A stretch of 64,000 nucleotides of DNA from IMG/VR virus record IMGVR_UViG_3300033053_000017, positions 1 through 64,000 of that record, one strand, 5' to 3'. This document shows, one piece after another, positions 1 to 56,758 of the stretch. A program made the translations under genes and the position numbers. This DNA is from a virus. Every line of letters starts with the position of its first letter. Position 1 is the stretch's first letter. The notes under the pieces were generated by a model, which did no database searches, was not told the DNA's origin, and saw nothing but the letters and a program-made list of their open reading frames with translations.

Positions 1-5
1 CCACT

Positions 6-33
6 TTTACACCTCGCTTTCTTATGATATAAT
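6..33 (+). promoter_or_regulatory. Sigma-A-type promoter inside IR arm A
   Basis: TTTACA (6-11), 16-nt spacer, extended -10 TGaTATAAT (25-33). It reads rightward, convergent with recT. Confidence 0.6.
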
Positions 34-39
34 ATAAAT

Positions 40-224
40 ATATAACTAAGAGAAAACCGTTATTTAGGCACTCTTAGAGATTATAGAGTACACTCTATAG
101 TTTGCGGTGTTGTCAATCACCGTATCGTAACCTACGTTTGAGATGGGAGGTACTTTGTACCATGTACCATGTGTAGTAGAGTTACAAGCACCCACTTCAA
201 CGAAGTAAGTGGTGTGTCATTGAC
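40..224 (+). ncRNA. Candidate structured untranslated RNA (IR arm A transcript)
   Basis: Lies downstream of the promoter and has no SD-led ORF. Hairpins: 46-52/71-77, 82-88/93-99, 105-109/118-122, 149-153/157-161 (alternative partner 164-168), 189-197/207-216. Confidence 0.4.
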
Positions 225-267
225 GTTTGCCTCCTTTCAGGAGAGAGCATTTTGGATACTCTCTCAG

Positions 268-9219: not shown

Positions 9220-9339
9220 TTGCAACAAGATATAACTTGATGTACAATATAATTGTTAAGTAATCGTGGCAAATTCGACAAGTCAAATTCCCTAGTTAAT
9301 TAAGAAAGAGGCCTGCTTATATCCAGGGGCTTCTTTTTT
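9220..9339 (+). ncRNA. sRNA cassette A (own promoter and terminator)
   Basis: TTGCAA (9220-9225), 17 nt, TACAAT (9243-9248). The transcript is about 85 nt and ends in a bulged hairpin 9305-9333 plus T6 (9334-9339). No ORF. Confidence 0.45.
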
Positions 9340-9341
9340 AT

Positions 9342-9455
9342 TTGCAATTGTAAATATTTTGCTTTATAATAATCTTGTGTTTATGTTTATATTTGTTTTT
9401 CAATAATCACTAACCCTTTACTCGAAAGAAGTAGCTTGCAGACTGCTTCTTTTTT
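9342..9455 (+). ncRNA. sRNA cassette B (own promoter and terminator)
   Basis: TTGCAA (9342-9347), 17 nt, TATAAT (9365-9370). Hairpin 9427-9450 plus a T-run to 9455. Confidence 0.45.
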
Positions 9456-9457
9456 AT

Positions 9458-9593
9458 TTGCAATTATTTTCCTTTAGGTATATAATGTAAATATATTTAT
9501 ATTTATAAGGCTCATTTATCAATTCTCAACTCATTTGACAAATACATATTCCCTAGCCAAAAGGAAGTCGATAATGCCTAGACTTCCTTTTTT
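9458..9593 (+). ncRNA. sRNA cassette C (own promoter and terminator)
   Basis: TTGCAA (9458-9463), 17 nt, TATAAT (9481-9486). A 9-bp hairpin 9561-9569/9581-9589 plus a T-run to 9593. Confidence 0.45.
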
Positions 9594-9727: not shown

Positions 9728-10681
9728 TTATTTGCTCATAGTTTTATACCTCTTACCGCTAAAACCTCTCTTAAAAGCGTGCTTATTGTCATTCTGAAGT
9801 ACTTCCTCTTTGCCATTCATATTCTTTTTTAATTCCTCTATTATTTTCAATAAAGTTTTATTCTCCTGCTGAAGCTTTTCATTTGTTTCATCCTTCTGCC
9901 TATTCATGTGCTGGAATGATTTTAAAGTCTTATCCATGTAGTTTACTTTCATTTTAAGCATTTCTTCATGGGCCGCTTTAGCCTGTAAAGTTTGCATGTC
10001 TGTTTCTTTAGAGTTATTATTAATCCTTGCATACCAATTGCGAATGCTAACATGTTTTGCTTTGCTGTACCGGCATCCTCTCTGCATTACAGGAAAAACC
10101 TTCTGCATATGGTCTGCGTAACTATCCTGCATATCTCTTAAAGCCTGGTATCCGTTGAAATACTTATAGTTTTGCAAGGTATAGCAGCCTTTTTTCTCAT
10201 TCCATATCCGGGGTATTAAAAGGCAATGCAAATGTAATGTTGTTTCGTCATCATGGGCAAAAACCGCTCTTATATTATCTTTGAAAGTTTCCTGCAGCCA
10301 TTCCAAATTAGTGTTTTTCCATAATTCTATTTCCTGTTTTGACATGCCTTTAAAGAATTGAGGTGTAGCGGTCAATAACAATTCTCTGCCAATCACGCTG
10401 TTTTTATATATCTTTGTGTCTTTTAGATATTCTTTAGTATCTTCGTATAAATCATTGGATCCTAAAAGCTGCTCATTATATTTAAATCTCTCAGGATCCG
10501 CATTAGGTGTTTCCCTTTCTCTTTTCATATGTTTAACAAATCCTTTAATGGATGGAATTGTTTTGAACTTTTTCTCCGATACTCTGAAAATACAATAAAT
10601 GGGCATTTTGTTATTAAAAGCATAAGGCATATCTTTTCTGTATTCGTTGGTTACTTTTTCCTCTTTAAGTCTAGCATCCAT
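9728..10681 (-). CDS. mob: MobV (Mob/Pre family) relaxase
   Basis: HMKRERE matches MobM motif I (HNQRER). AHDDETTLHLHCLLIP matches the HxDE..PHxH motif III (VHNDEQTPHMHLGVVP in pMV158 MobM, recalled from memory). Confidence 0.8.
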   Translation of the reverse strand: MDARLKEEKVTNEYRKDMPYAFNNKMPIYCIFRVSEKKFKTIPSIKGFVKHMKRERETPNADPERFKYNEQLLGSNDLYEDTKEYLKDTKIYKNSVIGRELLLTATPQFFKGMSKQEIELWKNTNLEWLQETFKDNIRAVFAHDDETTLHLHCLLIPRIWNEKKGCYTLQNYKYFNGYQALRDMQDSYADHMQKVFPVMQRGCRYSKAKHVSIRNWYARINNNSKETDMQTLQAKAAHEEMLKMKVNYMDKTLKSFQHMNRQKDETNEKLQQENKTLLKIIEELKKNMNGKEEVLQNDNKHAFKRGFSGKRYKTMSK

Positions 10682-11801: not shown

Positions 11802-13256
11802 TTACTGGCCCTCCTTCATATTCTTATTTAAAAGCATTGCTTTGTCTTCATAGTATCTATACTGCTTCGCTAATATTGGTTTTAAGTTTTGGGATATAAT
11901 AAGAACTTCATCTTTTTTTAGCCTTCTAATTTCATCAGGAGTAAACACATTTTTTTTCATCTTTACAGTTCTATTGCCCTGCACTATAGGAATCTCCTTA
12001 TCACCATTTAGTGTTGTAAATTCTCTTAACATTTCTACCTCTGAATAAGCTGGTAAGATGCACTTCGTCTGCATAGCATTTAAAATTGATCTAGTTCCAT
12101 TCCTTCCGTATACATCAATCAACGCTGAAACAGATTGTAGGACAAGTAGGAAAGCATAATTTGACTCTCTTGAACTATTTACTGTTTGTGCTAAGGTTGG
12201 TATTCTGCCTAGGTTTTGCGCTTCGTCTAAAAGCCAAACAATGTTATTTTTATTGTTATCATAATACTTTTTACATTTTTCTATTAATTGGGTATACATG
12301 ATGCTCATTAATGGGGAAAGATAGTTTGAATCTTCAGGGAAGTATTTAATGTAAAGAGAAACCCTTTCATCTCTTAACATTTTATAATTAAAGTCTGAAT
12401 AGCTTGTTTTAGATGCTATCTGAGGGTCAAGCCAAAACTTTGTATTTGTTGCTAGTGTACTTAATATAGATGTTAATGGTCCACCACTGCTGTCTTCATC
12501 CTGTGGAACTGACATATTGAAAATGTTGAATTGTTTTACAACATTTTGATTTTTAGAATTACCAAATACTATTTCTATGTCTTCTGGTTCATTACTAATT
12601 AAAAAATCCACCGCTTCAGATATTGTGTTGTGTGGCCTTTTTAAATCTTTATGATAAAACAAGCTTGCCGCTAAAAGTGCTGTAGCTGCTTGAATCCAAA
12701 AAGCATCATTGCTGCTAAAACTTCCACCGCCATTACCTGAATCCAGTTTGATTGCTAGTGTTCCAGACATAAGAATGTCTTTTGCTAGTTTCTCTACTTC
12801 TGAATAAGTTTCTGCCCATTCTAAAGGGTTATAATGTCCATGTGTGCCTAGCGGTTCAAATAAAAATATTTTTCTGCCTATGCTTTTTTGATAACATGAT
12901 GTGTCTCTCCATAGTTCTCCTTTAGAATCATTGATTACTATGCTTGTATTTATAGGAAAATGATTAATTAGAAGCTGAGTATACACAAACGGAGTAGTTT
13001 TGTGCTGCCCTGGAGGGCCTATAACAATTACATTTTGCAATGAAGATTTCCAACTTAATTGATATTTTTTACCGATTTTATTTTTTCCAATTATAAAACC
13101 ATCTTTGCCTTTAATGTCTTCTAAGTCATTAGTAACTCCACCTGTAGCACTCTTAGTTCTACCTTCAAAAACAATTGGTATAGCAGCACTAGCAGCGCAA
13201 AAAGCCATCCCAGCGTAAAAAACCTTGTTTATTAATTCCATATCTAATCCATACAT
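11802..13256 (-). CDS. Type IV coupling protein (TraG/TraD/VirD4 family)
   Basis: N-terminal TM segment, Walker A GPPGQHKTT, and WLLDEAQNLGRIP...LLVLQSVSALIDVYG, which matches the TraG-D_C / TraM-recognition region. Confidence 0.8.
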   Translation of the reverse strand: MYGLDMELINKVFYAGMAFCAASAAIPIVFEGRTKSATGGVTNDLEDIKGKDGFIIGKNKIGKKYQLSWKSSLQNVIVIGPPGQHKTTPFVYTQLLINHFPINTSIVINDSKGELWRDTSCYQKSIGRKIFLFEPLGTHGHYNPLEWAETYSEVEKLAKDILMSGTLAIKLDSGNGGGSFSSNDAFWIQAATALLAASLFYHKDLKRPHNTISEAVDFLISNEPEDIEIVFGNSKNQNVVKQFNIFNMSVPQDEDSSGGPLTSILSTLATNTKFWLDPQIASKTSYSDFNYKMLRDERVSLYIKYFPEDSNYLSPLMSIMYTQLIEKCKKYYDNNKNNIVWLLDEAQNLGRIPTLAQTVNSSRESNYAFLLVLQSVSALIDVYGRNGTRSILNAMQTKCILPAYSEVEMLREFTTLNGDKEIPIVQGNRTVKMKKNVFTPDEIRRLKKDEVLIISQNLKPILAKQYRYYEDKAMLLNKNMKEGQ

Positions 13257-16377: not shown

Positions 16378-16405
16378 TTTATAATGTTCTTGAATTGCAT
16401 GTCAA
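16378..16405 (-). promoter_or_regulatory. Candidate promoter just upstream of the leader terminator
   Basis: Minus strand TTGACA, 16 nt, TATAAA. Confidence 0.45.
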
Positions 16406-16563
16406 TCTTCATCTACATATTCAAAACCATTTTGCTTTCCCTCTGCTTTCAACTCAATTAACGCTCTATTAAAAAAACAGGTTTCATCAAGAATAGTGCC
16501 ATCTTTAAGCTTTACATAGTGTTCAAATTTTTCAATTTCACGTCCACAATCTTTACATCTCAT
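16402..16563 (-). CDS. Small Cys-containing protein (53 aa)
   Basis: GAGGTGA SD. Sequence MRCKDCGREIEKFEHYVKLKDGTILDETCFF... It is the first ORF downstream of IR arm B. Confidence 0.4.
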   Translation of the reverse strand: MRCKDCGREIEKFEHYVKLKDGTILDETCFFNRALIELKAEGKQNGFEYVDED

Positions 16564-16657
16564 GGTATCACCTCGATTCACATTTTATTCAAATTACGTC
16601 ATTACTTTTATAGTGCCACAACTTTATGTTCTATAATTTATAACATAAAAAAGAGCT

Positions 16658-16841
16658 GTCAATGACACACCACTTACTTCGTTGAAGTGGGTGCTTGTAA
16701 CTCTACTACACATGGTACATGGTACAAAGTACCTCCCATCTCAAGCGTAGGCTACGATACGGTGATTGACAACACCGCAAACTATAGAGTGTACTCTATA
16801 ATCTCTAAGAGTGCCTAAATAACGGTTTTCTCTTAGTTATA
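16658..16841 (-). ncRNA. Candidate structured leader/sRNA (IR arm B transcript)
   Basis: Same hairpin set as arm A. The conserved part is followed by CUCUUUUUUAU (about 16645-16655). Confidence 0.4.
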
Positions 16842-16847
16842 TATTTA

Positions 16848-16875
16848 ATTTTATCATAAGAAAGTGAGGTGTAAA
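16848..16875 (-). promoter_or_regulatory. Sigma-A-type promoter inside IR arm B
   Basis: Minus strand TTTACA, 16 nt, TGaTAAAAT. It reads toward the small ORF and the lysis cassette. Confidence 0.6.
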
Positions 16876-16980
16876 AGTGGTAAGTATAAGAAGTTGCTTG
16901 TCAGCAAGTGGCAATTCCTCCCCCACTTTAGAAGTAGAAGTATCCTTGCCACGAATGGATGAAAGCTATAGCTCTTAATA

Positions 16981-17289
16981 TTATTTAGTTTTAGCTTTTA
17001 ACATCTCACTAGCTTTACGGATGCAATAAACATTAATTACAAAACCTATTGTACCATTTGTAAAGAAAGTTCCTAGTAGAACTAATATAGCCATCATAAA
17101 GGTTCTTTGATAATCAAAATACATTGAAAAATGTAATCTAAAGTAGCATAACGCAACAACCGCATCTAGTATTACAAGTATTATAAGCTTCTCTGGTGAA
17201 TCAGGAAAAAAGTTAAATGCAACAATGCTACACCCATAAAAAATAATCATACTTAAAATTAATAAATTTTTGTTTTTCTTTATATCCAT
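16981..17289 (-). CDS. Small integral membrane protein (3 predicted TM segments)
   Basis: 102 aa and hydrophobic throughout. Last gene of the polyvalent-protein operon. Confidence 0.6.
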   Translation of the reverse strand: MDIKKNKNLLILSMIIFYGCSIVAFNFFPDSPEKLIILVILDAVVALCYFRLHFSMYFDYQRTFMMAILVLLGTFFTNGTIGFVINVYCIRKASEMLKAKTK

Positions 17290-17340: not shown

Positions 17341-20300
17341 TTAATTGTCATAAGGATTAGCTTTTCCTTTTTTCTTTGTAGGTGCTTTTCCTTTCTTTAA
17401 TACAGCAGCTTTATTAGATAAGCTTTGAAGTAATTGGCTTTTCTTTTCTAGTGATATATTGGCTTTAGAGATTAAATCCGCTTGCTGTCTTATATAAGTA
17501 GCTTTGCTGGAAGTATTATATTTTATATGGTCTTCAATGTTAGACTTCAGTTCAGTTGGAGAAACTATGCTACTGTCACCATTCATAAGTTTATTTGCCT
17601 CTGCTGCTGTATCTATTATTTGCTGTCTTAAAGATTTAACTTTTTCTGTTTCTCCGTTTTGCATAGCTTCAAATACTTGTTTTGATAAATCCGCTATAGT
17701 TTTATTGGCTTTAGTAAATTCACTGGACACATTTTCCTCATGCGTAACAACTTTAGAATCTATGTTTTCCGAGAAGTTTTTATCCGCTGCTGCTGTTTTG
17801 GATTTTTGCATGTTGTCGTAGAAGTCCTGTACATCCTGGTTATTATATAACGGATCTGCTGTAAATCTTGTGGTAACAGGAGAAAGTATATCATCTAATT
17901 TGCTGTCGCCTTTTGTGTTTGACAAAGTTGTCATTGGAAGTACAAACTGTCCTATAACGCCAGTGTAGGATTTAATAACATAGTCTACCTGTTTAGGTGA
18001 TAAGCCTAGCTTTCCAAATAGCTTTCCTATTTCACTGGTCTTTTCATCATACTGTAACTCCGCTGAACGTCCTTCTATTGACTGGGGAACAATTGCCCTT
18101 CCAGCAAAATCCTTATTAGAAGGCAAATTATAAATAAGAGGAGAAAATATATTATTTTCAATAGGGTCAGTTGGTGAAAAGTTTGTTGCTATTGTATTGC
18201 CAAATCCTTTAAAAGCTTCATCATCGCCATTAGACTTCCTCCAAATACGTTCAAATAACGATCCGAATATTACACCATATTCTCTTGACTTAGGTATCTT
18301 TATGAATTTATCGCCATAAGGAATTAAATAATAAGTATCTTTAGTTCTATTGTCTAATTTATCATAGTTTGGATTATCGGCATTTACTATATTCTGAAGT
18401 ACACTTAATGATGTAACACCTATTAATCCCTTAGCTACTGTTGGAATAGCCTTTTTGCCTTTAAACTGTCTAACTAATTTGTCCAAGCCTTGAATACTGG
18501 CGTTTAGGTAAGGAACCCAAGCATCAACTTTCTTTGTAACATCTCCACCTCTGCTGAAGTTCGTTGTGACTTCGTTTGAGTCAAATAAAGCTTTTTCTAT
18601 ATCGCCAGTCTTAGCTAAAGTCCTTTTAAATTCTGCAAGCCTTGGCGCGCTTTCAAGGGCATTGTTAAAGGCTTCAACCTTGTTCCCTATTCTACTTAAT
18701 AAGCCTTCTTTTCTTAGTTGTGCTGCTGACTTATAAGTCTTTTCGCTGTCAAAGAAGTTAGAACCTCCACCGCCTACGCCTTTATATTTTTGGTAACTTT
18801 CGGCATTAGTTAGAACATCTTTAAATGCACTCCCTAAATTGCCTACAGCTTTTAAAGGATTATTTTCCTTAGAGTTTATCATATACGTTGGAATATCTCT
18901 TGATACATTGGATATTGCAAATAGTGGATTTTTAGTTGTTATCAATGCTTTAAATAAATTCGTAGCTGCTTTTGCTTTCCTCGTTATATCTCCTAAGTCA
19001 CTTTTGTTAACAGCCTTTAAAGCATCTAGGAAAGGTTTATTATTAATCTGAAGATTAACACGTTCTCCATTTTCTAGCACTGTAACAATGTTGTCGTGAT
19101 TATGATTAATCTCAACATCTTTAGGAATTATTTCAGCAAAACCTTGTAATTCTGTAGGATGCTGTCTTATTGAATTTAAAGCCTCTTGACCTACTTCATT
19201 ATATTTTGCAGTTCTTACAGTACGATTAACTAAATTCATAATGTTTTCCACTGGATTTTTTATATCTCTATCTGAACCTTGGGCTCTGCTTAATGGTGTA
19301 GATTGGTCTACAAATCCTTTACCGTTAGTCTTTTCTATCCCACCTTCTAATTCTGTAAAGCTTCTATTAGTTGGTATATAGTTAGGATATTTCTTTTTCA
19401 AGCTGTTCCATAAATCATCCGATATTAAACCGCTCTTATGGCCCCATTCTTCCATGAAAGTTTTTAACCACTTAGTAACATTGTCTCCGGCTCTTTTTAA
19501 ATCAGGATTCAATTTTTCAAACTCGTTTACTATATTCTGTGATGATTCACTGTTATGTTTTGGATAAACAGGCTTGTTTTCTGCATATCTTTGAACATTA
19601 TGTCTATGCAGCATATATTCCCAGAACTCATTTTCTTTTCCTTTAGGAACTTGATTGACTAATTCTCTTAATGAATTACCTATCTTTTTGCCTTTCATAT
19701 CTACTAATGCACTTGTTAGTATATGATCCACTACACCGCCTACATTTTTAGAGTTAGTAGATTTTATATATGCTTTATCTCCGCTTACCTTGGAAAAATC
19801 CGCAGTAGGTTTATTGGTATCGACTATCCTAGTATAGAATTTATTCCAAGAATTTTTAAAACTAAACTTACTATCGTTTTTGCTGGATACTATTTTAACG
19901 TCATTTTCAGGCATATTAGGTCTTACTACGTCTTTAAGCTGTTTAAGTCTTTGCTCTGCTGCAAATAGCTGTAGATTAATTGATCTTACTTTTTTATTAT
20001 CTTTAGCTTTTACAGCTTCTTTTACAGCAGTTTTTAAATTGCTTATATGTTCTTTTAAAGTATTTGCATCATCTATTTTATTAAAATCTATTGAAGCATC
20101 ATTGGTCTTAACATCGTTAACTTTAACATCATTGCTTTCCATCCTGGTCCTATTCAAGTCGTTAAAAGTCTTTTTGCTAATAGTAATATCTTTTCCGCTC
20201 TTATGAGTAGCTATGACATTCTTACCATTGATAGATTTTACAGTAACCTCGCCTATATTCTTAAGATTATATTTTTCGTTCTCTATTATAGGCTTTTTAG

Positions 20301-23300
20301 GATTCATTAAGCTAGGCATTTTTTTACTAGAATATTTAGTGCTTTGTGGTACTACTTTAGTTGTTTCATGTATTACTTCTTTATATCCGCTTACTTTATT
20401 TCCTTTTGGCTTTTCACCTAGTTCTTTTGCTTCGTAGCCCTTCCATACAGGTGTAGATTCTTTCTTTACAGTTTTATAAGGTTGCTCTTTGTATCCGCTA
20501 AATACAGGCTTTGTTTCGTGGCTTACTTTTTCCACTGTCTCATATTTAGGATTATTTGTTGCAACTCTATCAGTTGTCTTTTTAATAACTGATTGTTCCC
20601 TGTATCTGTTTTCCCTAAATTTTTCTTCAGTCTCATTTACTCTAACGCCCTTGCCAACATCTTTGCCCATCCATTTAGTGTTATTTACTTTGTCAGGTCT
20701 TATGCCCATGTCTTTACGCAAGCTTACTGTAGATTCTTTAGTGTTAATTAAAGCATCATTTATATGGCCTTTTCTAACTAAGTTAGACAAGCTCTCCGTT
20801 GCTCCTTCACCGTTAGCATTTACAAATACGGAAGTTGATCCAAATTCTTTCATTCTGCCCCTGAGATAATCTGTTGTTGCTTTCTCATTCTCTAGTATCT
20901 TACTAGGGATTTCTTGTATTGCCCTTACTTTTAATTTACTGTCCATATAAAATACTGCACTTTGATTGCTGTCAAGCTGTAGTTCTTTACTTGTAATAGC
21001 TAGTTGTTGAGGATTCTTTATTGTTTCACCTAATAGTGGATGATCTAAGCTAGGTTTTAATATCTTGTCTTCTCCCATGCCTAAGTCCAATATATCACTT
21101 TCAAGCCCTTTGCCTATTGTTGCATACTTTTCACTGTTAATAACTACATGTCCCTTAAAGCCTTTAACATTATCTCTATATGCTTTAGTAGCTTCCAAGT
21201 CAGGCTTTGAAGGCGTAGGCTCTCCTGAAGGATGATTATGTAATAAGTAATATCCATCTGCTTTCATTCTTTTCATTCTCTGATTCATTTCGAAAAATGC
21301 AGCAGGCTTATTCTTTAAAAATGCAACAGTTGAACCTGGTATTCTTGAAGTCATAGCTTCATGCCCTACTATCTCATTTCCACGAGTATAAATAATACGG
21401 AAAGTCTCATATTGAGGGTTTCGGAATATTTGGCCCATTACAGCTACGTCTTTTACATCATTTACTTTTCTTCCTCTAAGTTCGACGTATCCTTTGTGTG
21501 CAAGTTCTTTTGAGAAGGAAACACCGACTGTCTTGATGCCATTTCCACTAGTTGTTCCTCCGGTGCTTCGTACTCTATCTTCAAGTTGTCTTGTGCTTTC
21601 AATTGCTTCACTTGCAAGGTTCATTGCCTCCTTATCTTTATTTTTGTATAAATGTTGAATTTTACCTAGTAAGTCCGTTTTGTCTTTTTGTTGACTGCTT
21701 TTTTCTCCATCCTCTATGAAAGACTGTTTTTCTTCTTCTAATATATTTTTACTATTTAAATCAAATTTAGAGTTGTTGCCTATAGATGATTTAATTTGAT
21801 TAGGAGAAAAAACAGCATAAGTTTCAGACTTTAATTCCTTCCACACTAAACCATCAATGTCATTATCTTTTAATGCTTTTACAAAATTATTATTGTCAAA
21901 GTACATGTAAGCATCCCATTTACCGTTCCTGATTTGGTCTGCAACTTCTTCCTCGTAATTAGGATGCTCGTTAAGTAAGCCCTCTTTCTCTAATAATTTT
22001 CGTCTTTGTTCAACTTCACTCTTGTAATAATCATTAATAACAGATGTAGCTTTTTCTCTAGTTATCCCAGAATTTACTAATATATGTCCCGCTGTCACCT
22101 GGTCATTTAATGACATGCTCCTTAGATCTAATGGGTTTTCAAGTTTTAAATAAACAGGTGTAATGTTAGCACCCTTCTTTAACTTGTTTTGTTTTCTACC
22201 ACCCATAGCAAATGTTTCTGCATGTTCAGCATCTTTAGCAAACCAAAAAGCATTACGTCTGCCGCCAAAAGTGCTTATTCCTTTTTTATCTTTTCCAACA
22301 AACGTTGAACCATGATAAACCACTAAAGGATTACCCTTTTCATCAGTAACCTTGCTGTCACCAAACCATTTTTTAAATTCAGGTGTTTCCACTTTAGCAC
22401 CTTCAAAATTATTACTATTAACATTATTATATGCTTCTGCCTTTTCTTTGACTTGATTGCTTTCAGGCTTATCAATAACAACCAATCTAGTATTTACACC
22501 TGTGGATCTGTCACTTTCTTTAAAACTACCTTCAGGAAGCTTTTCAGATGTACCGCCTAATCCATCTAGCCATTCTCTAAATTCTACACTCTTTTTATCG
22601 TTGGCGAAAAACGGATGTTCACTCATTATAGCTACTATTCTTCCACCTGGTTTAAGCTGTTCATAAGCGTGTTGAACGTGGATAACATCTTGATTCTTTT
22701 CAAAAGGTGGATTCATTATTATTTTGTCATACTGCCCTTTATGTTCCAAGAAGTCTTGACTTACTACATTATGCCCTTTTGCTTTTAAAATTTCTGACAG
22801 TGAATTATTATATTCTCCGACTTCTAAGTTATTCTTTGGATGCTCTGCTTTTATCATATCTGCAATATGTCCGCTTCCAGCTGAAGGTTCCAATATACTT
22901 TCACCATCTTTAATATTAGCTTCTTCCAGCATCCTATCGACTACCTTTTTAGGTGTAGGGAAGTAGCTTTCAAACTTCTTTCCTATAATGCCTCTTTCAA
23001 GTTCTTTAACTTTCTTGGCCTGTACTTCTTCAGGAGATAACTTAAAATCACCTTTAGCTTTTTGAAACTCCCTTAACGCAGCTCTAAGCATAGTTGTGTT
23101 TTTGATGCCCATAGTTTGAAGCCTTTTATAATCTACTAAATCATAATCTCTACTAAAATCTTTACCTGATCTTTTGAGCTTGTCGTAAAGTTCAATAATA
23201 TCCTCTGCTATGTTTTTAGTGTCAATATAACGTTCCTCACCTTTAACCTTATTTTGTACTACAGCTTTATCTATTTTCTGTCTTAATCTAGCAGTATTAG

Positions 23301-26300
23301 GTATACTTACAGTTTCTTTCGTTAGCTGCTTTAATGTTTCGTCGTAAGTTTTAGTTAGTGGATATTCTGCTGTATCTATAGAATTAAATTCAACTTCAGG
23401 TTTATCTTTCAATTCTTGTTCATATCGCTTCTTAGTTTCATATGTTCCACTGTTACCAGGATATTTTTCATCAATCATTTTTGAAACAAGCTTATTTTTA
23501 GTTGTCCTTAATACGCCTTCTAAGGTTTCAATATGAGTTTTTGCAGTAACACCGTCTAAATGTTTTGCTTCTCCGCTTTCAATTAAATCTGCTATGTTTC
23601 TAATGATTTTCTGCTGTTTCTTTAGTGCCTCTCCTTCTGCTTCAGCGTTAGCTGCCATACTTGCCCTTCTAGCTGTGTTGGTTTGTCTATCTGCAAATTT
23701 ATTATCTATAGTTGATTGCATGTTATCAGCTACAGTTCTAAGTTTGTTGGCAACTTCTTTTTTTCTGCTTGGCTTAACTTCTTCTTTTGCAGTTTCTACT
23801 ACATCGCCTTTTTTAATAGAGTTAAGTTTTTCAGTAGGATCAAAGTAAAAATTAAATCCTCTTGTAAATCTTGAATAGCCAGCACCGCCCAAGTCCTTCA
23901 TTTGTTTATTTAAAGTCTTAAAGTCTCCACTCTTATCCTTAAATTTAACTACCCATAAATCTCTTTTATCCCTGGTATCTTGCGTTTTAGATATATCATA
24001 TTCACTATTAGATTCTAGGTTTGTTACTGTCTTAACTCCTTTTTCTTTCTCTTTAGCTTTAATATCTAAGGACTTTAATTCTTCGTACTGTCTTTGTTCC
24101 TCTGTGCTTAATTTTTTCACTCTTTTAGCTAGTTCAAAATCTTCTAATGTGGTAGGATTTTTAATGCTTTCAATTTTAGCCTTTCTTTCTTCTGCAGCTT
24201 TATTGTAAGAACTCTTTTTCTTTTCTAGCATTGAATCAAGTTTTTCCTGTGTAAGTTTTTCTAATGAGGATTTAATTTTGCCTTTCATCTGGTCCTCTAA
24301 GCGTTCCTTACCGCCATAACTTAAACCGCTTAATGTATCAGTATCAGCTATATCATAGTAAGTTCTATTTAATTGGTTATTGTAAATATGTTCAACCTTA
24401 TCTTGCTTCTTAGTATAGTCTTTAGCTCTCCATCCTATCATCTTGTCAAGTTCAGCGTTTTTAAGTTTAGATAGTTCGGATTTTATAACATCTTCATTGT
24501 TCATAATATACTCAGCATGGTTTTTAACTTCTTCTGCAGTAAGTGGTTCACCTTTTCTAATTTTGCTATTTGTTTTAGTTATAGTAGTTAAGGGGTTTTC
24601 TTGTTTAGCTTCTTCTTTTTTTGTTAACTCAGGATAATCTTTTGCGACTTCTTCAGGAACCTGTCTTCCTTCCTTTAGTGCATTTCTAACTGATTGTTCA
24701 TGTTCATATTGAAGTAGCTCCTTAGTTGCCCCACGAGTTTTACCAACATATTCAGCCTTTGTTTTTAAGTAAGCTTCTTCTTGTGCTTTTCTTGAATTAT
24801 CATATTTTTGTTTCAATTCTTGTTCATGTTCTTTCTTTAGCTGCTCTCCTTCTTGTTTTTTAATTTCTTTAACTTTATCTTCTGTTTGTTTAGATAGTTC
24901 TTTTGCTGTAGGTTTTCCCTTGCTTTTTTCCATTTCACTTTTAAGCTTTTCAGCATCTTCTTTAATTCCAGGATACTCTTTCAAAACTTCTTCAGGCACA
25001 TTTTTGCCTTCGATTAAAGCACTTTTAATTGAATTTTTATGCTGAATTTCTCCTAGTGGGTTCCACGATTCTTCTGTCCACCCTTTTTCTGATCTAACTT
25101 TTTTCATTTCTGCCTTGGTCAATTGCCAGTGTTCCTGTGGCTTTTCTTCCTTAACTTCAGTATTTAATTTCTGTCCGCTACCTTCAATATCATTCTTTTT
25201 AGATACGTAATCTTTATTAGCTTCAATGTCATTGCCCATCATATCTTTATATCCGTTACTTAGCCTGCTATCTATAACAAGTTCTATCTTCTTACTCTTA
25301 GCGTTATTTTCTTTCCCATCATCTGATATAAGTTTATTTAATCCTTCTTCTATGTCTTTATATCCCATTTTATATTGATCTCTTAAATAAGCTATATCAC
25401 CACTTGTTACCCTCTGCTGGCCCCATGTTGTGCCATCTTCTCTTGTGCCTTTTTCACCTTTAGAAGTGTTTTTCAAATCATCCAGCAAGGATTTTGCATC
25501 ATCTTGAATATGGTGTTTTAGTTCAGGATGTAAATACTGATAAGATTGAACCTTTCTATTTCCTACATTTGTGTTGTCTCTTTCATCTATAGGAAGTTGT
25601 TCTTTCGCTGTAGGCTGTGATTTTATGCTTTCATATTGTTCGCCATTCTTTTTAGCTAGTACATAATCACCTTCAGGTCTTTGTATTTCAACAGTACCAT
25701 CATTATTTATCTTGTGTATAGTCCCTGCATCCAGTTTATTATTATGGTTTAATAATACTTCGTCATTTACTTTATGTGTTATATTCTCCATAGAAGCGTT
25801 TTGAGCAGCATTATTTTCTACAGGTATATTTGTATCACTAAGTGCAACTTCATTTGTCTGTGGCTGTTCTGTGGTCTTAACATTATCTTCTACTGTATTT
25901 GCTTTTCTATTATTTTTCATTTCTTGTAATTTTTTAAATTCAGCACTCATATTATTTAATGTTGATTGATTTTCAGGTGTTATTTGTCCATTATTATCGG
26001 CTAGTATTTTTTTAGTTCTTTCAGTTAGATCATTTATTCTTTTATCTACAAATTCACTAGAAAGTTTAGGCTGTCTATAACTTCTTACTACTGGAATTTG
26101 TTCAGTACCTTCTGCATAATTTGTAACGTCTTTATATTGTGGTAGTCCTGTTTCCTGCTTTTGATAGTCAACATTTCTTTCTTTTTTAACACTTACCAAA
26201 GGCACTTGCTCATTTGCAGTAACAGGAACATTTTCTTTATAGGTCATTACACTTGGAACTTGTTCTTTTGCTGTAGGTTCTCTATAGGTTCTTACATAAG

Positions 26301-27849
26301 GTATTTGTTCTGTGGTCGTTTCTTTTACTGGATTAAATGTTGTGCTGTCTACTCCTGCAACCTGTCTTAGCCTTTGCCTATCACCTATTGCTCTTATATC
26401 TGTTTTAGCTGTTTCAGCATCTTTAACCAGCTGTTCTAAGTCAATTCCTAACTCTGGCTTTATTCTTGCCATTTCTTCAGGAGTAAGTTTATTAGTTCCA
26501 AAATGATTTCCTATAGCATCCATAGCATCTTGCAATTTCTGCTGTGCTTGTTCTGGAGCTGTATTTTTAACTGTATATGTGGTTCCTCCTGGTTTGCCTA
26601 ATCTTGTTTTTAATTCATTGTTTATAGCATTATTGCTTATATTATCAGGATTTAAGCCCATGTTGCTCATGGAGTTCTTAGTTTCATCATTATATTTTTT
26701 AGCCGCTAATAGTTCAGGAGCAGTATATGAGGACAAGTCATTACTTGTATTAACGCTATCTATAGTTGATTTAGGTATTGTCTGTGCTGTACTGTCAAAG
26801 GTTGTTTTGTCTATATCATGTATATTACCAGCTTCATCCTGTACTCTTACATTTTGCCCATCATCATTTAGAACTTTAACTTTTCCTTTGCCTTGTAAAT
26901 AGTGAGTGAAGGCATCTCCTACAAGCTTACCGCCTGCGCCCCACAACGCCCCTTGTTCAAAACCTTCTTTTACTGCTTCGCCTACATCTTGACCATTTAC
27001 AGCACTATTTATTCCTTCATTTAATCCAAACTCTGCACCTGTTTTTAAGGATTTCGTAATATAATCAGGTGTGTTTTTAATTGCATATCCTGTGCCTTGT
27101 GAAAGTTTATTAAGGGCATAATTGCCCCATTTATTTTCAACATTGTTTGCTAAATTAGATATATTTCCTTCTACTCTATTGCCTAAATTAGTAGCTTTAT
27201 TGGTAAGATCGTATTTACTAGCTAATTTATTTAAAGCATTTTCCGTAGGTTGTCCGATAACTTTATTCATGGCATTACCTATGGAGAAGTTAGCACCAGG
27301 AAGATTTGCACTGAACCCAATACCGCCCCCAATGAAGTCTGCTACTGAATCCGCTAAGTCACTTCCTGTACTGTATTCTTTATCTTTTAAAGCATTGCCG
27401 CCTGTCATAACATCCGCTGCAGATTGCCCAGCCCTAGCTATCCCACTAGTTATAGGATTACTACTGATTAAATCATCAAACTTAGTATTTAACCAGTCCT
27501 CACCTTTTCTAACAGTTCCCCAAAAGCCGGTATCATCATCACTACTATTGCTAGAACTACTAGAAGGAGTTATGCCATCAAAAGAAAATGAAGTATCGCT
27601 ATCATTACTATTATTGTTATTAGAACTATCTACAAACATATCAGCATATTTTGGATCTATTTGACTATCCGAACTATTATTACTACTTGATATATCCGAA
27701 CTTGCACTAGAGTTATCACTTGTTTCATCTTTTTGGTGGACTAAAGGATCATTTAGAAAACTAGGCAATTTACTTGATTGACTTTGAGATTGACTCCCGC
27801 TTGAAAAGCCATCAAGATAACTAGGTAATTTCTTTTTCTTTTTAGCCAT
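17341..27849 (-). CDS. Giant polyvalent protein (3502 aa) with N6-adenine MTase, PARP/DT-like ART and RadC/JAB domains
   Basis: MTase motif I ILEPSAGSGH and motif IV NPPF (aa 1713-1716, nt 22702-22713). VVYHGS...NAFWFAKD around aa 1846 (about nt 21900-22360). YYLLHNHPSGEPTPSKPD at aa 2204 (about nt 21130-21520). The N-terminus is Ser-rich and low-complexity. There are repeated ALxEG(K/R)xVPEEVxK(E/D)YP modules. Confidence 0.9.
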   Translation of the reverse strand: MAKKKKKLPSYLDGFSSGSQSQSQSSKLPSFLNDPLVHQKDETSDNSSASSDISSSNNSSDSQIDPKYADMFVDSSNNNNSNDSDTSFSFDGITPSSSSSNSSDDDTGFWGTVRKGEDWLNTKFDDLISSNPITSGIARAGQSAADVMTGGNALKDKEYSTGSDLADSVADFIGGGIGFSANLPGANFSIGNAMNKVIGQPTENALNKLASKYDLTNKATNLGNRVEGNISNLANNVENKWGNYALNKLSQGTGYAIKNTPDYITKSLKTGAEFGLNEGINSAVNGQDVGEAVKEGFEQGALWGAGGKLVGDAFTHYLQGKGKVKVLNDDGQNVRVQDEAGNIHDIDKTTFDSTAQTIPKSTIDSVNTSNDLSSYTAPELLAAKKYNDETKNSMSNMGLNPDNISNNAINNELKTRLGKPGGTTYTVKNTAPEQAQQKLQDAMDAIGNHFGTNKLTPEEMARIKPELGIDLEQLVKDAETAKTDIRAIGDRQRLRQVAGVDSTTFNPVKETTTEQIPYVRTYREPTAKEQVPSVMTYKENVPVTANEQVPLVSVKKERNVDYQKQETGLPQYKDVTNYAEGTEQIPVVRSYRQPKLSSEFVDKRINDLTERTKKILADNNGQITPENQSTLNNMSAEFKKLQEMKNNRKANTVEDNVKTTEQPQTNEVALSDTNIPVENNAAQNASMENITHKVNDEVLLNHNNKLDAGTIHKINNDGTVEIQRPEGDYVLAKKNGEQYESIKSQPTAKEQLPIDERDNTNVGNRKVQSYQYLHPELKHHIQDDAKSLLDDLKNTSKGEKGTREDGTTWGQQRVTSGDIAYLRDQYKMGYKDIEEGLNKLISDDGKENNAKSKKIELVIDSRLSNGYKDMMGNDIEANKDYVSKKNDIEGSGQKLNTEVKEEKPQEHWQLTKAEMKKVRSEKGWTEESWNPLGEIQHKNSIKSALIEGKNVPEEVLKEYPGIKEDAEKLKSEMEKSKGKPTAKELSKQTEDKVKEIKKQEGEQLKKEHEQELKQKYDNSRKAQEEAYLKTKAEYVGKTRGATKELLQYEHEQSVRNALKEGRQVPEEVAKDYPELTKKEEAKQENPLTTITKTNSKIRKGEPLTAEEVKNHAEYIMNNEDVIKSELSKLKNAELDKMIGWRAKDYTKKQDKVEHIYNNQLNRTYYDIADTDTLSGLSYGGKERLEDQMKGKIKSSLEKLTQEKLDSMLEKKKSSYNKAAEERKAKIESIKNPTTLEDFELAKRVKKLSTEEQRQYEELKSLDIKAKEKEKGVKTVTNLESNSEYDISKTQDTRDKRDLWVVKFKDKSGDFKTLNKQMKDLGGAGYSRFTRGFNFYFDPTEKLNSIKKGDVVETAKEEVKPSRKKEVANKLRTVADNMQSTIDNKFADRQTNTARRASMAANAEAEGEALKKQQKIIRNIADLIESGEAKHLDGVTAKTHIETLEGVLRTTKNKLVSKMIDEKYPGNSGTYETKKRYEQELKDKPEVEFNSIDTAEYPLTKTYDETLKQLTKETVSIPNTARLRQKIDKAVVQNKVKGEERYIDTKNIAEDIIELYDKLKRSGKDFSRDYDLVDYKRLQTMGIKNTTMLRAALREFQKAKGDFKLSPEEVQAKKVKELERGIIGKKFESYFPTPKKVVDRMLEEANIKDGESILEPSAGSGHIADMIKAEHPKNNLEVGEYNNSLSEILKAKGHNVVSQDFLEHKGQYDKIIMNPPFEKNQDVIHVQHAYEQLKPGGRIVAIMSEHPFFANDKKSVEFREWLDGLGGTSEKLPEGSFKESDRSTGVNTRLVVIDKPESNQVKEKAEAYNNVNSNNFEGAKVETPEFKKWFGDSKVTDEKGNPLVVYHGSTFVGKDKKGISTFGGRRNAFWFAKDAEHAETFAMGGRKQNKLKKGANITPVYLKLENPLDLRSMSLNDQVTAGHILVNSGITREKATSVINDYYKSEVEQRRKLLEKEGLLNEHPNYEEEVADQIRNGKWDAYMYFDNNNFVKALKDNDIDGLVWKELKSETYAVFSPNQIKSSIGNNSKFDLNSKNILEEEKQSFIEDGEKSSQQKDKTDLLGKIQHLYKNKDKEAMNLASEAIESTRQLEDRVRSTGGTTSGNGIKTVGVSFSKELAHKGYVELRGRKVNDVKDVAVMGQIFRNPQYETFRIIYTRGNEIVGHEAMTSRIPGSTVAFLKNKPAAFFEMNQRMKRMKADGYYLLHNHPSGEPTPSKPDLEATKAYRDNVKGFKGHVVINSEKYATIGKGLESDILDLGMGEDKILKPSLDHPLLGETIKNPQQLAITSKELQLDSNQSAVFYMDSKLKVRAIQEIPSKILENEKATTDYLRGRMKEFGSTSVFVNANGEGATESLSNLVRKGHINDALINTKESTVSLRKDMGIRPDKVNNTKWMGKDVGKGVRVNETEEKFRENRYREQSVIKKTTDRVATNNPKYETVEKVSHETKPVFSGYKEQPYKTVKKESTPVWKGYEAKELGEKPKGNKVSGYKEVIHETTKVVPQSTKYSSKKMPSLMNPKKPIIENEKYNLKNIGEVTVKSINGKNVIATHKSGKDITISKKTFNDLNRTRMESNDVKVNDVKTNDASIDFNKIDDANTLKEHISNLKTAVKEAVKAKDNKKVRSINLQLFAAEQRLKQLKDVVRPNMPENDVKIVSSKNDSKFSFKNSWNKFYTRIVDTNKPTADFSKVSGDKAYIKSTNSKNVGGVVDHILTSALVDMKGKKIGNSLRELVNQVPKGKENEFWEYMLHRHNVQRYAENKPVYPKHNSESSQNIVNEFEKLNPDLKRAGDNVTKWLKTFMEEWGHKSGLISDDLWNSLKKKYPNYIPTNRSFTELEGGIEKTNGKGFVDQSTPLSRAQGSDRDIKNPVENIMNLVNRTVRTAKYNEVGQEALNSIRQHPTELQGFAEIIPKDVEINHNHDNIVTVLENGERVNLQINNKPFLDALKAVNKSDLGDITRKAKAATNLFKALITTKNPLFAISNVSRDIPTYMINSKENNPLKAVGNLGSAFKDVLTNAESYQKYKGVGGGGSNFFDSEKTYKSAAQLRKEGLLSRIGNKVEAFNNALESAPRLAEFKRTLAKTGDIEKALFDSNEVTTNFSRGGDVTKKVDAWVPYLNASIQGLDKLVRQFKGKKAIPTVAKGLIGVTSLSVLQNIVNADNPNYDKLDNRTKDTYYLIPYGDKFIKIPKSREYGVIFGSLFERIWRKSNGDDEAFKGFGNTIATNFSPTDPIENNIFSPLIYNLPSNKDFAGRAIVPQSIEGRSAELQYDEKTSEIGKLFGKLGLSPKQVDYVIKSYTGVIGQFVLPMTTLSNTKGDSKLDDILSPVTTRFTADPLYNNQDVQDFYDNMQKSKTAAADKNFSENIDSKVVTHEENVSSEFTKANKTIADLSKQVFEAMQNGETEKVKSLRQQIIDTAAEANKLMNGDSSIVSPTELKSNIEDHIKYNTSSKATYIRQQADLISKANISLEKKSQLLQSLSNKAAVLKKGKAPTKKKGKANPYDN

Positions 27850-56127: not shown

Positions 56128-56553
56128 TTAGAATGGGATCGGATCCCCATCGTCCACTGGTGTTATATCCGCATTAAATCCTTCTGTATTTCCTTCACTG
56201 TTTCCTGCTGCTGGTGTGTTGTTATTGCTGGATTTTTTCTCATTCATAAAATCAACTTCTTCAGCCACAACCTCAGTTACATACACCGTTTTATCCTCTT
56301 TGTTTTTATATGTCCTGGTTTGTATTCTTCCTACAATTCCTATCTTATCGCCTTTAGAGCCACAATAATTAGCTGTACTTTCCGCTTGCTTTCCCCAAAT
56401 TACTATGCCAATAAAATCTGCTGATTGTTCTCCCTCTTTTTTAAACCTTCTATCTACTGCAATAGTTCCTGTCAACACTGCTGTACCATTACCACTTGTA
56501 AATTTTAGTTCTGTGTCTTTTACCCAACGACCTACTAATATTGATTTATTCAT
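56128..56553 (-). CDS. ssb: Single-stranded DNA-binding protein
   Basis: OB-fold N-terminus (MNKSILVGRWVKDTELKFT), a Gly/Asn-rich linker, and the acidic tail DDGDPIPF. Confidence 0.9.
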   Translation of the reverse strand: MNKSILVGRWVKDTELKFTSGNGTAVLTGTIAVDRRFKKEGEQSADFIGIVIWGKQAESTANYCGSKGDKIGIVGRIQTRTYKNKEDKTVYVTEVVAEEVDFMNEKKSSNNNTPAAGNSEGNTEGFNADITPVDDGDPIPF

Positions 56554-56758
56554 TTGTCAATACCTCCTCTTCTTCTAAAACCATTCCACTTATGTGATTA
56601 ATAGCTATTACGCTTTCAATCATTCTAATGCCATTTGCAAAACATTCGCTTGTCATTGTTCCATCTTCCTTTTCTTTAAATCCTACCAACACATAACTTT
56701 CAAAATCTTCGACTTTCCCATCTTCACTTAATATCATAACTTTGCTCATATTTGACAC
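56546..56758 (-). CDS. Hypothetical protein (70 aa)
   Basis: Overlaps the ssb start by 8 nt. Confidence 0.5.
   Translation of the reverse strand: MSNMSKVMILSEDGKVEDFESYVLVGFKEKEDGTMTSECFANGIRMIESVIAINHISGMVLEEEEVLTNE

Follow-up and report, generated by a model that had tools for sequence, protein, structure and literature searches.

Inverted arms in a tailed-phage genome as probable PATE-type mini elements with an orphan TnpB omega RNA

The virus record IMGVR_UViG_3300033053_000017 begins, over the stretch of 64,000 nucleotides that we refer to as the window, with one arm of a long inverted repeat, and each arm consists of a promoter followed by a hairpin-dense RNA of about 185 nt. The question raised by this locus is what kind of unit such an arm represents. 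A sequence-only reading of the window had offered several possible roles, namely a put-like antiterminator, a trans-acting sRNA, an sso-like replication origin and a recombination site. We consider it likely, with a probability of roughly 0.8, that each arm is instead a PATE-type copy of a tnpB-only insertion sequence (IS) of the IS200/IS605 family from Clostridium, which has lost its protein-coding part by internal deletion and would supply an omega RNA in trans. The coordinates of the features discussed below are collected in the table.

The window belongs to a tailed phage that encodes a major head protein, portal, terminase, BppU baseplate protein, amidase and holin, as well as RecT, a Mob_Pre relaxase, a T4SS coupling protein and a 3502-aa polyvalent protein, and its GC content is 33.6%. 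The collections of phages and plasmids contained no close relatives; a megablast search of 25 kb of the window against them matched the IS ends only, which indicates that the phage itself is new. Its capsid protein is at most 32% identical to those of known phages, exact-protein look-ups of RecT and of the two ORFs flanking arm B found none of them on record, and the loci related by RecT and amidase are 45–69% relatives that lack synteny and are unusable for empty-site comparison.

A repeat search of the window recovered the two arms that had been claimed, 35–224 and 16658–16847, as one long inverted repeat with 99% complementarity, and alignment of both arms extends their identity on to window position 1 and to 16890. 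Arm A differs from arm B at positions 16 (G/A), 30 (T/A), 130 (A/G) and 137 (T/C), the same four substitutions that had been listed before, and by a 1-nt indel at 34 that had been missed. With only four substitutions and one indel between them, either one copy arose recently from the other or both came from one source. The unit had also been drawn too narrowly, since arm B continues upstream to 16958 and is followed there by TTCAT at 16959–16963. Arm A is truncated by the start of the window about 68 nt into the left end, and the first ~68 nt together with TTCAT would precede the window. If the start of the window, which lies inside the arm A element, is also a contig end, it may represent an assembly break caused by the repeat. 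ORFs within the unit do not exceed 43 aa, in agreement with the earlier statement that no SD-led ORF follows the promoter; the longest ORF in 16640–16975 has 48 aa and overlaps the edge only.

An inverted pair of ~300-bp sequences with 99% identity, one of them adjacent to the phage's own RecT gene, could allow homologous recombination to invert the 16.4 kb between the arms. However, the minus strand carries all long ORFs, those within the segment and those beyond it, so that the present arrangement is collinear, and inversion would be a by-product that offers no explanation of the unit itself. We regard it as a very improbable account of the arms.

The identity of the unit emerges from its homologues. 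In a blastn search, window positions 86–224 are ~83% identical to DNA on 14 plasmids of C. botulinum/sporogenes, and all 14 matches are annotated under, or adjoin, an "RNA-guided endonuclease TnpB family protein". In two of these loci (L001 and L002) the match sets in within a 380-aa tnpB, 6 nt short of its stop codon, and continues ~130 nt downstream. The homology stops at ...ATTGAC, where the plasmid copies part from each other just as arms A and B do, and this shared stop is the signature of a transposon right end that carries a TnpB omega RNA. Two domains, OrfB_IS605 and a Cas12f1-like TNB, are recognized in the 380-aa proteins, and alignment with the structures of Cas12f and TnpB shows that the RuvC residues D, E and D are kept. 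We built a covariance model, R1, from nine tnpB-linked RNAs only, excluding the arms, and its search of the 64-kb window yielded exactly two matches, which are the two arms, both at full length (150 and 146 bits). The same RNA is found 3' of tnpB in at least nine unrelated loci, and further omega RNA matches occur in C. magnum and in metagenomes. Judged by this homology, the arm RNA is a member of the TnpB omega RNA family and not a new RNA class.

Searches by other routes gave little. Rfam returned zero matches at gathering thresholds for the whole window, in line with the earlier failure to recognize a riboswitch class, and only chance-level matches (E above 1) for positions 1–400 at E <= 10; a scan for tRNA and tmRNA found none, and blastn of the arm against phage records gave no match. 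Two core patterns scanned over viral contigs found nothing, one pattern scan of a genome collection found C. magnum only, and a pattern scan recovered L015 from viral contigs. Pattern scanning of metagenomes provided full copies (L006, L008, L009 and L011), a tnpB remnant (L010) and a second mini element. L007 was discarded as a chance match to the search pattern, not a homologue.

The other end of the unit is equally recognizable. The DNA upstream of arm B (~16850–16963) is homologous to the left end of tnpB elements; window positions 16847–16964 match that left end at 83–89% and positions 16658–16796 match the right end (L001, L008, L011). The left end upstream of arm B consists, in this order, of TTCAT, a subterminal imperfect palindrome, a small second hairpin and CCACTTTTACACCTCACTTTCTTAT, which is the -35 region upstream of the arm B omega RNA and precedes tnpB in the full copies. 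TTCAT is found directly 5' of the left end at eight sites (L001, L002, L003, L006, L008, L011, arm B and the L012 PATE) with unrelated DNA beyond, and the flanks of these insertions are not duplicated. Based on knowledge of the family and on the invariance of TTCAT beside unrelated flanks, we presume that it is an external target motif; TTCAT is the documented transposon-adjacent motif (TAM) of ISGst5 (PMC10055086).

At the opposite boundary, the right end of all 13 copies reads (A/G)TTGA(C/T), and the flanks beyond it are unrelated. The distance from left to right end is 1382–1412 bp in the full copies L001, L002, L003, L006, L008 and L011 versus 301 bp in arm B. By these sequence comparisons, each arm is the left end, promoter, omega RNA and right end of a tnpB IS from which the tnpB ORF has been deleted, and in-frame stops, as judged by inspection, occupy the position of the former tnpB 3' end in the mini element. 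The sequence-only reading had itself allowed that the unit might be simply the terminal part of a known IS or MITE family, and the combination of a left end with an omega RNA and right end is of that kind. An IStron or group I intron, considered because of the Clostridium relationship, was rejected: Rfam gave no intron match and the left end is only ~110 nt long.

Subterminal palindromes are located at both ends on the same strand (left, 16908–16952; right, 188–217; DNA folds), and their cores are similar in relatives. In L012 the position of the left-end palindrome is taken by a perfect 20-bp hairpin whose core, CCCCCACTTCTAAAGTGGG, resembles the right-end hairpin of L006. Compared with L012, the left-end hairpin of arm B is degraded, several C-to-T changes having produced G.T pairs, which makes its present-day mobility doubtful. 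In view of what is known of the family, we take the terminal hairpins to be single-strand DNA sites for the transposase.

These ends bear directly on the roles proposed earlier. A transposon-unrelated RNA acting in cis or trans, such as a riboswitch or a put-like antiterminator, or a single-strand replication origin, would agree with the hairpin-dense RNA behind a promoter and with the Mob_Pre relaxase gene in the region. We give almost no credence to this class of explanations, because Rfam offers no match, the left and right ends of the tnpB IS account for the whole unit, the same RNA follows tnpB in those nine or more unrelated loci, and the two arms differ in their downstream contexts, one convergent and one co-directional. 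The put-like role found no support, and neither did the sso-like origin, the terminal hairpins being read as the transposase sites just described. The two other proposals came close: an omega RNA, like a trans-acting sRNA, would work in trans, with TnpB as its partner, and the recombination site is near the mark in that the arms are transposon ends.

Both arms are headed by near-consensus promoters, as had been claimed, and the number of matches is 11/12 in arm A and 10/12 in arm B, with TG in both. The arm A promoter goes back to the left end of the parent IS, in which a homologous site precedes tnpB; in L011 this site (10531–10559) reads TTTACA-17-AATAAT and is 30 nt before the tnpB start. 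Removal of tnpB places the left-end promoter ~6–12 nt upstream of the first omega-RNA helix. The possibility that the -10 element was created by the deletion junction was dropped, as TATAAT is already present in the left end of L011. In the sister PATE L012 no plus-strand promoter passed the scan, and the site is weaker there; the strong promoter is consequently not fixed in the mini-element lineage, which we count against our preferred explanation. The full elements contain a possible internal promoter in the 3' end of tnpB, TTGCAA-18-TAGAAT with TG (L011, 11632–11661), and a promoter-like site at the same position in L001 (~2915–2945), ending ~6–10 nt before P1. This site, a 9/12 match in AT-rich DNA, hints that transcription of the omega RNA may be independent of the tnpB mRNA.

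The RNA structure itself is statistically unusual. The RNA from 40 to 245 has a minimum free energy (MFE) of -64.4 kcal/mol (z = -3.83), which none of 200 shuffled sequences equals. All of the helices that had been listed by eye (46–52/71–77, 82–88/93–99, 105–109/118–122, 149–153/157–161 and 189–197/207–216) are part of the MFE fold, arms A and B have the same MFE structure and energy, and the seven helices P1 to P7 are intact in both. Covariation was counted on an alignment of 13 homologues with a consensus fold from RNAalifold. Over its 41 pairs, 97% of cells are paired across the 13 homologues, and slid controls drop to 23–49%. Double changes affect 12 of the 41 pairs, compared to 4.8 +/- 1.5 in shuffles, and none of 500 shuffles reaches 12. 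P3 and P4 are near-invariant and are backed by conservation rather than covariation. In the tnpB-linked copies P1 is formed by CUUUGGA/UCCAAAG; the mini elements have CUAAGAG/CUCUUAG instead, and four of the pairs are fully compensated, a comparison that needed a 2-column register fix of the alignment. This helix is inside the tnpB coding sequence in the full copies, while in the mini elements its sequence is non-coding and rewritten and the helix is retained. The frequent G.U pairs fit an RNA read from the arm strand.

The covariation among homologues favors a structure under selection, as the sequence-only reading maintained, although the specific evidence which that reading had put forward did not survive. 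It had taken A130G and U137C as compensatory changes in a hairpin 129–131/136–138; this is at chance level, with 138 of 500 shuffles scoring as high over the 13 homologues. The hairpin has one double change (arm B) and is broken in L003, L004 and L009, in two of which (L004 and L009) U137C occurs alone and leaves A.C. The consensus fold has A130 paired with a U of P4, where A130G is tolerated as a G.U pair, and leaves U137 unpaired. The supposed switch, in which GGUAC would pair with either copy of a duplicated GUACCAU, is not conserved, the duplication being found in this window only. At the corresponding positions of the homologues, the first copy serves to close P6, which is variable, and CCAU further downstream completes the conserved AUGG/CCAU helix P5.

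The second mini element mentioned above (L012, identical with L013 and L014) aligns end to end with window positions 16658–16963 at 72%. This sister element, diverged 72–78%, shares TTCAT, the left-end hairpin and the rewritten P1, and the existence of two diverged elements that agree in architecture and in P1 indicates a propagating lineage, not a one-off deletion. The sister is located among genes of a bacterial chromosome (MFS transporter, SpoIIM, integrases), and the mini element is therefore not specific to phages. An independent partial deletion is seen in L010 (10220–10406, minus strand), where the omega RNA and right end follow a short tnpB remnant (aa 344–372).

Table. Features of the two arms and of their surroundings (window coordinates)
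Feature	Position	Strand	Basis or detail
Arm A, probable 3' 224 nt of a PATE-type mini insertion sequence	1..224	+	99% identity to arm B; homology to the left-end promoter region and the omega RNA/right end of tnpB elements
Arm B, probable complete 301-bp mini element (left end, promoter, omega RNA, right end)	16658..16958	-	end-to-end alignment with the L012-L014 PATE; ends align with full tnpB elements
Arm A promoter, TTTACA-16-TATAAT with TG	6..33	+	11/12 matches, extended -10
Arm B promoter, TTTACA-16-TAAAAT with TG	16848..16875	-	10/12 matches
Arm A omega RNA scaffold, ending ...AUUGAC	42..224	+	R1 positions 1-193, 150 bits, E ~3e-38
Arm B omega RNA scaffold	16658..16840	-	R1 positions 1-193, 146 bits, E ~4e-37
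P1	46-52/71-77	+ (arm A)	
P2	78-88/93-103	+ (arm A)	RNAalifold
P3	104-109/118-123	+ (arm A)	RNAalifold
P4, long-range	127-135/176-185	+ (arm A)	RNAalifold
P5	143-146/167-170	+ (arm A)	RNAalifold
P6, variable hairpin	149-153/157-161	+ (arm A)	
P7, right-end hairpin with bulged U213	188-197/207-217	+ (arm A)	RNAalifold
TTCAT, presumed TAM, directly 5' of the left end	16959..16963	-	same place at 8 independent sites
Left-end subterminal imperfect palindrome, GTGGCAA...TTGCCAC enclosing CTTCTACTT/AAGTGGGGG	16908..16952	-	DNA fold
Predicted guide of arm A, GTTTGCCTCCTTTCAGGAGA	225..244	+	flank directly 3' of the right end; putative guide use
Predicted guide of arm B, AGCTCTTTTTTATGTTATAA	16638..16657	-	first bases past the right-end boundary; putative guide use
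Predicted targets of the arm A and arm B guides, TTCAT+GTTTGCCTCCTTTCAG and TTCAT+AGCTCTTTTTTATGTT			
Split intrinsic terminator of ORF 16981-17289(-)	16647..16976	-	flanks joined in silico

The window contains no nuclease gene that could serve the RNA. A tblastn search of the 64 kb with the TnpB of L001 gave nothing better than E = 1, and tnpA is absent from the 64 kb and was seen next to none of the copies examined. The arm RNA is therefore an orphan that could act only with TnpB provided in trans; we assume such a partner, and count the absence of tnpB and tnpA from the window against our preferred explanation. The guides expected from this organization would be the flanks just past the right ends. 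Guides in this family are 16–20 nt long, and this length was assumed here. The predicted guides match nowhere else in the 64-kb window, and patterns representing the empty sites (TTCAT plus flank) were not found in viral contigs, a result that we likewise count against the preferred explanation.

The same observations could be accommodated if the arms were inert relics, that is, decayed IS remnants whose RNA, if made at all, has no function and whose copies persist because they are harmless. Neither tnpB nor tnpA is in the window, the window copy has a weakened left-end hairpin, the -10 of arm B carries a down-mutation from TATAAT to TAAAAT, and the search for guide targets found none. In contrast, a relic would not be expected to keep seven helices intact in both arms, to have P1 remodelled after the loss of tnpB by four compensated pairs that are common to a sister diverged 72–78%, or to match the tnpB-linked RNAs over the full length of the scaffold. 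Together, the intact helices, the remodelled P1 and the full-length score point to continued selection on RNA or single-stranded DNA structure, and we consider the relic explanation unlikely.

The insertion site of arm B can be reconstructed. When its flanks are joined in silico, they form a 9-bp hairpin followed by a U-run right after ORF 16981–17289; the 5' arm of this terminator is AAGAGCTAT (16976–16968), and the 3' arm is composed of AT (16960–16959) and AGCTCTT (16657–16651), followed by TTTT (16650–16647). The restored hairpin supports both the right-end boundary and the insertion event, and places arm B inside a terminator. It also forms if TTCAT is removed along with the element, and the reconstruction consequently fits either placement of TTCAT, inside or outside. 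The terminus of the right end together with the adjacent flank makes up a hybrid promoter-like sequence, TTGACA-16-TAAATT (10/12; 16635–16662, minus strand), which reads outward to a 59-aa Cys-rich ORF (16402–16581) and the holin and amidase genes. Arm A, for its part, is convergent with recT (268–1212).

One could imagine an exapted regulatory module, in which a mobile promoter and terminator-breaker is useful to the phage: arm B destroys the terminator after ORF 16981–17289 and reads toward the 59-aa ORF and holin/amidase, and the RNA of arm A is antisense to the 3' end of recT. The splitting of the terminator hairpin, the direction of the arm B promoter and of the hybrid site (16662–16635) toward the downstream genes, and the convergence of arm A with recT all agree with this idea. 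However, such effects are incidental to any IS insertion, and the contexts are not conserved, the sister PATE being situated beside unrelated chromosomal genes. We consider exaptation quite unlikely.

Returning to the PATE-type explanation, we propose the following mechanism. The mini element would keep the left end, with its TTCAT-adjacent boundary, hairpin and tnpB promoter, together with the complete omega RNA scaffold and the right end TTGAC. Transcription from about position 40 (about 16841 in arm B) would produce a scaffold of ~185 nt followed by 16–20 nt of flank as the guide. In a host with a cognate full-length element, TnpB made in trans could load the arm RNA and cut TTCAT-flanked "empty" insertion sites, which would lead to retention or homing of the mini element, and the hairpinned ends may allow a Y1 TnpA, also acting in trans, to move the element as single-stranded DNA. 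A more specific and quite unlikely extension is that the promoter-driven orphan omega RNAs serve the phage as a means of borrowing host TnpB for the spreading of linked alleles. On co-infection or recombination with related phages that are free of the insertions, host TnpB loaded with the arm RNAs would cut the uninterrupted TTCAT-plus-flank alleles, one past the 3' end of recT and the other within the terminator that precedes the lysis genes, and repair from the element-bearing genome would spread linked phage alleles. This would resemble marker exclusion by homing endonucleases, but with the nuclease supplied by the host.

The element is of an already known kind, and what is new is its occurrence in a new phage. 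Omega RNAs (reRNAs) of TnpB have reportedly been described for ISDra2 and ISGst elements (Karvelis 2021; Altae-Tran 2021). Like the omega RNA/reRNA of IS200/IS605 elements (Meers 2023, PMC10055086), which is a structured scaffold of ~150–190 nt that starts in the 3' end of tnpB, the arm RNA ends at the right-end boundary and is followed by a flank-derived guide, and the left end has a 5-nt T-rich motif. The arms differ in that tnpB is absent both nearby and from the window, that the RNA is directly behind the left-end promoter and not within a tnpB mRNA, that P1 has a new sequence, and that this Clostridial family, for which we found no biochemical characterization in the literature, has no Rfam model. 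With the PATEs described previously (Dyall-Smith 2011, PMC3119063; Meers 2023; Zedaveinyte 2023 preprint) they share hairpinned ends, the absence of an ORF, a size of a few hundred bp, multiple copies and, by analogy, the probable ability to be mobilized only in trans; PATEs often encode omega RNAs that are used in trans (Meers 2023, PMC10055086). In contrast to those, the arms are in a tailed-phage genome, form an inverted pair and have a near-consensus extended -10 promoter, and their mobility is a prediction. The IS1341-type (tnpB-only) elements of Clostridium have the left end, promoter -35, omega RNA and right end in common with the arms at 78–89% identity, but are ~1.4 kb long and encode a 380-aa nuclease, compared with 301 bp and no ORF in the window copies. 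Finally, orphan guides borne by viruses are known from the mini-CRISPR arrays of archaeal viruses and the guide RNAs of prophage TldR (Wiegand 2023 preprint, PMC10705468), where likewise a guide RNA gene is carried and the effector is perhaps elsewhere; the predicted guides of the arms, however, are simply the flanks of the insertion sites, as in any IS605-family element, with no sign of targeting competitors or host genes.

Several other features of the window deserve mention. The 3502-aa polyvalent protein (17341–27849, minus strand) has LPD38, ART-PolyVal (ADP-ribosyltransferase), methyltransferase and RadC-like JAB domains, and such polyvalent domains are typical of proteins that are injected or transferred with mobile DNA. 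The Mob_Pre relaxase (9728–10681) and the VirD4/TraG-type coupling protein (11802–13256, minus strand) in a tailed-phage genome suggest a mobilizable phage or phage-plasmid. A 63-nt direct repeat in intergenic DNA (9329–9391 and 9445–9507; 73% identity, 116-nt spacing), downstream of the Mob_Pre gene and upstream of a 234-aa ORF with a weak DnaA_N match, could be iterons, tandem promoters, an oriT or an origin region. Positions 56143–56568 have ~67% DNA identity to the gene of a single-stranded DNA-binding protein on the C. botulinum plasmid p1_CDC51232 (L002 3186–3634), which there adjoins the tnpB element; the similarity is consistent with a Clostridium-related host.

In all likelihood, then, what appeared to be a novel combination of a promoter and a hairpin-dense RNA is a miniature transposon that carries a TnpB guide-RNA gene as an orphan. 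Annotators who meet repeats of this kind in phages and plasmids of Clostridia should label them as IS200/IS605 PATEs with an omega RNA and not as new riboregulators. For TnpB biology, the arms offer a compact natural example of an omega RNA that has been freed from the constraint of tnpB coding and is placed directly behind a near-consensus promoter, and a 5' helix rebuilt by compensation helps to delimit the functional 5' boundary of the RNA in a family with the TAM TTCAT and the right end TTGAC. Mini elements of this type invade phage genomes, where guide RNAs without their nuclease could interact with TnpB encoded by the host.
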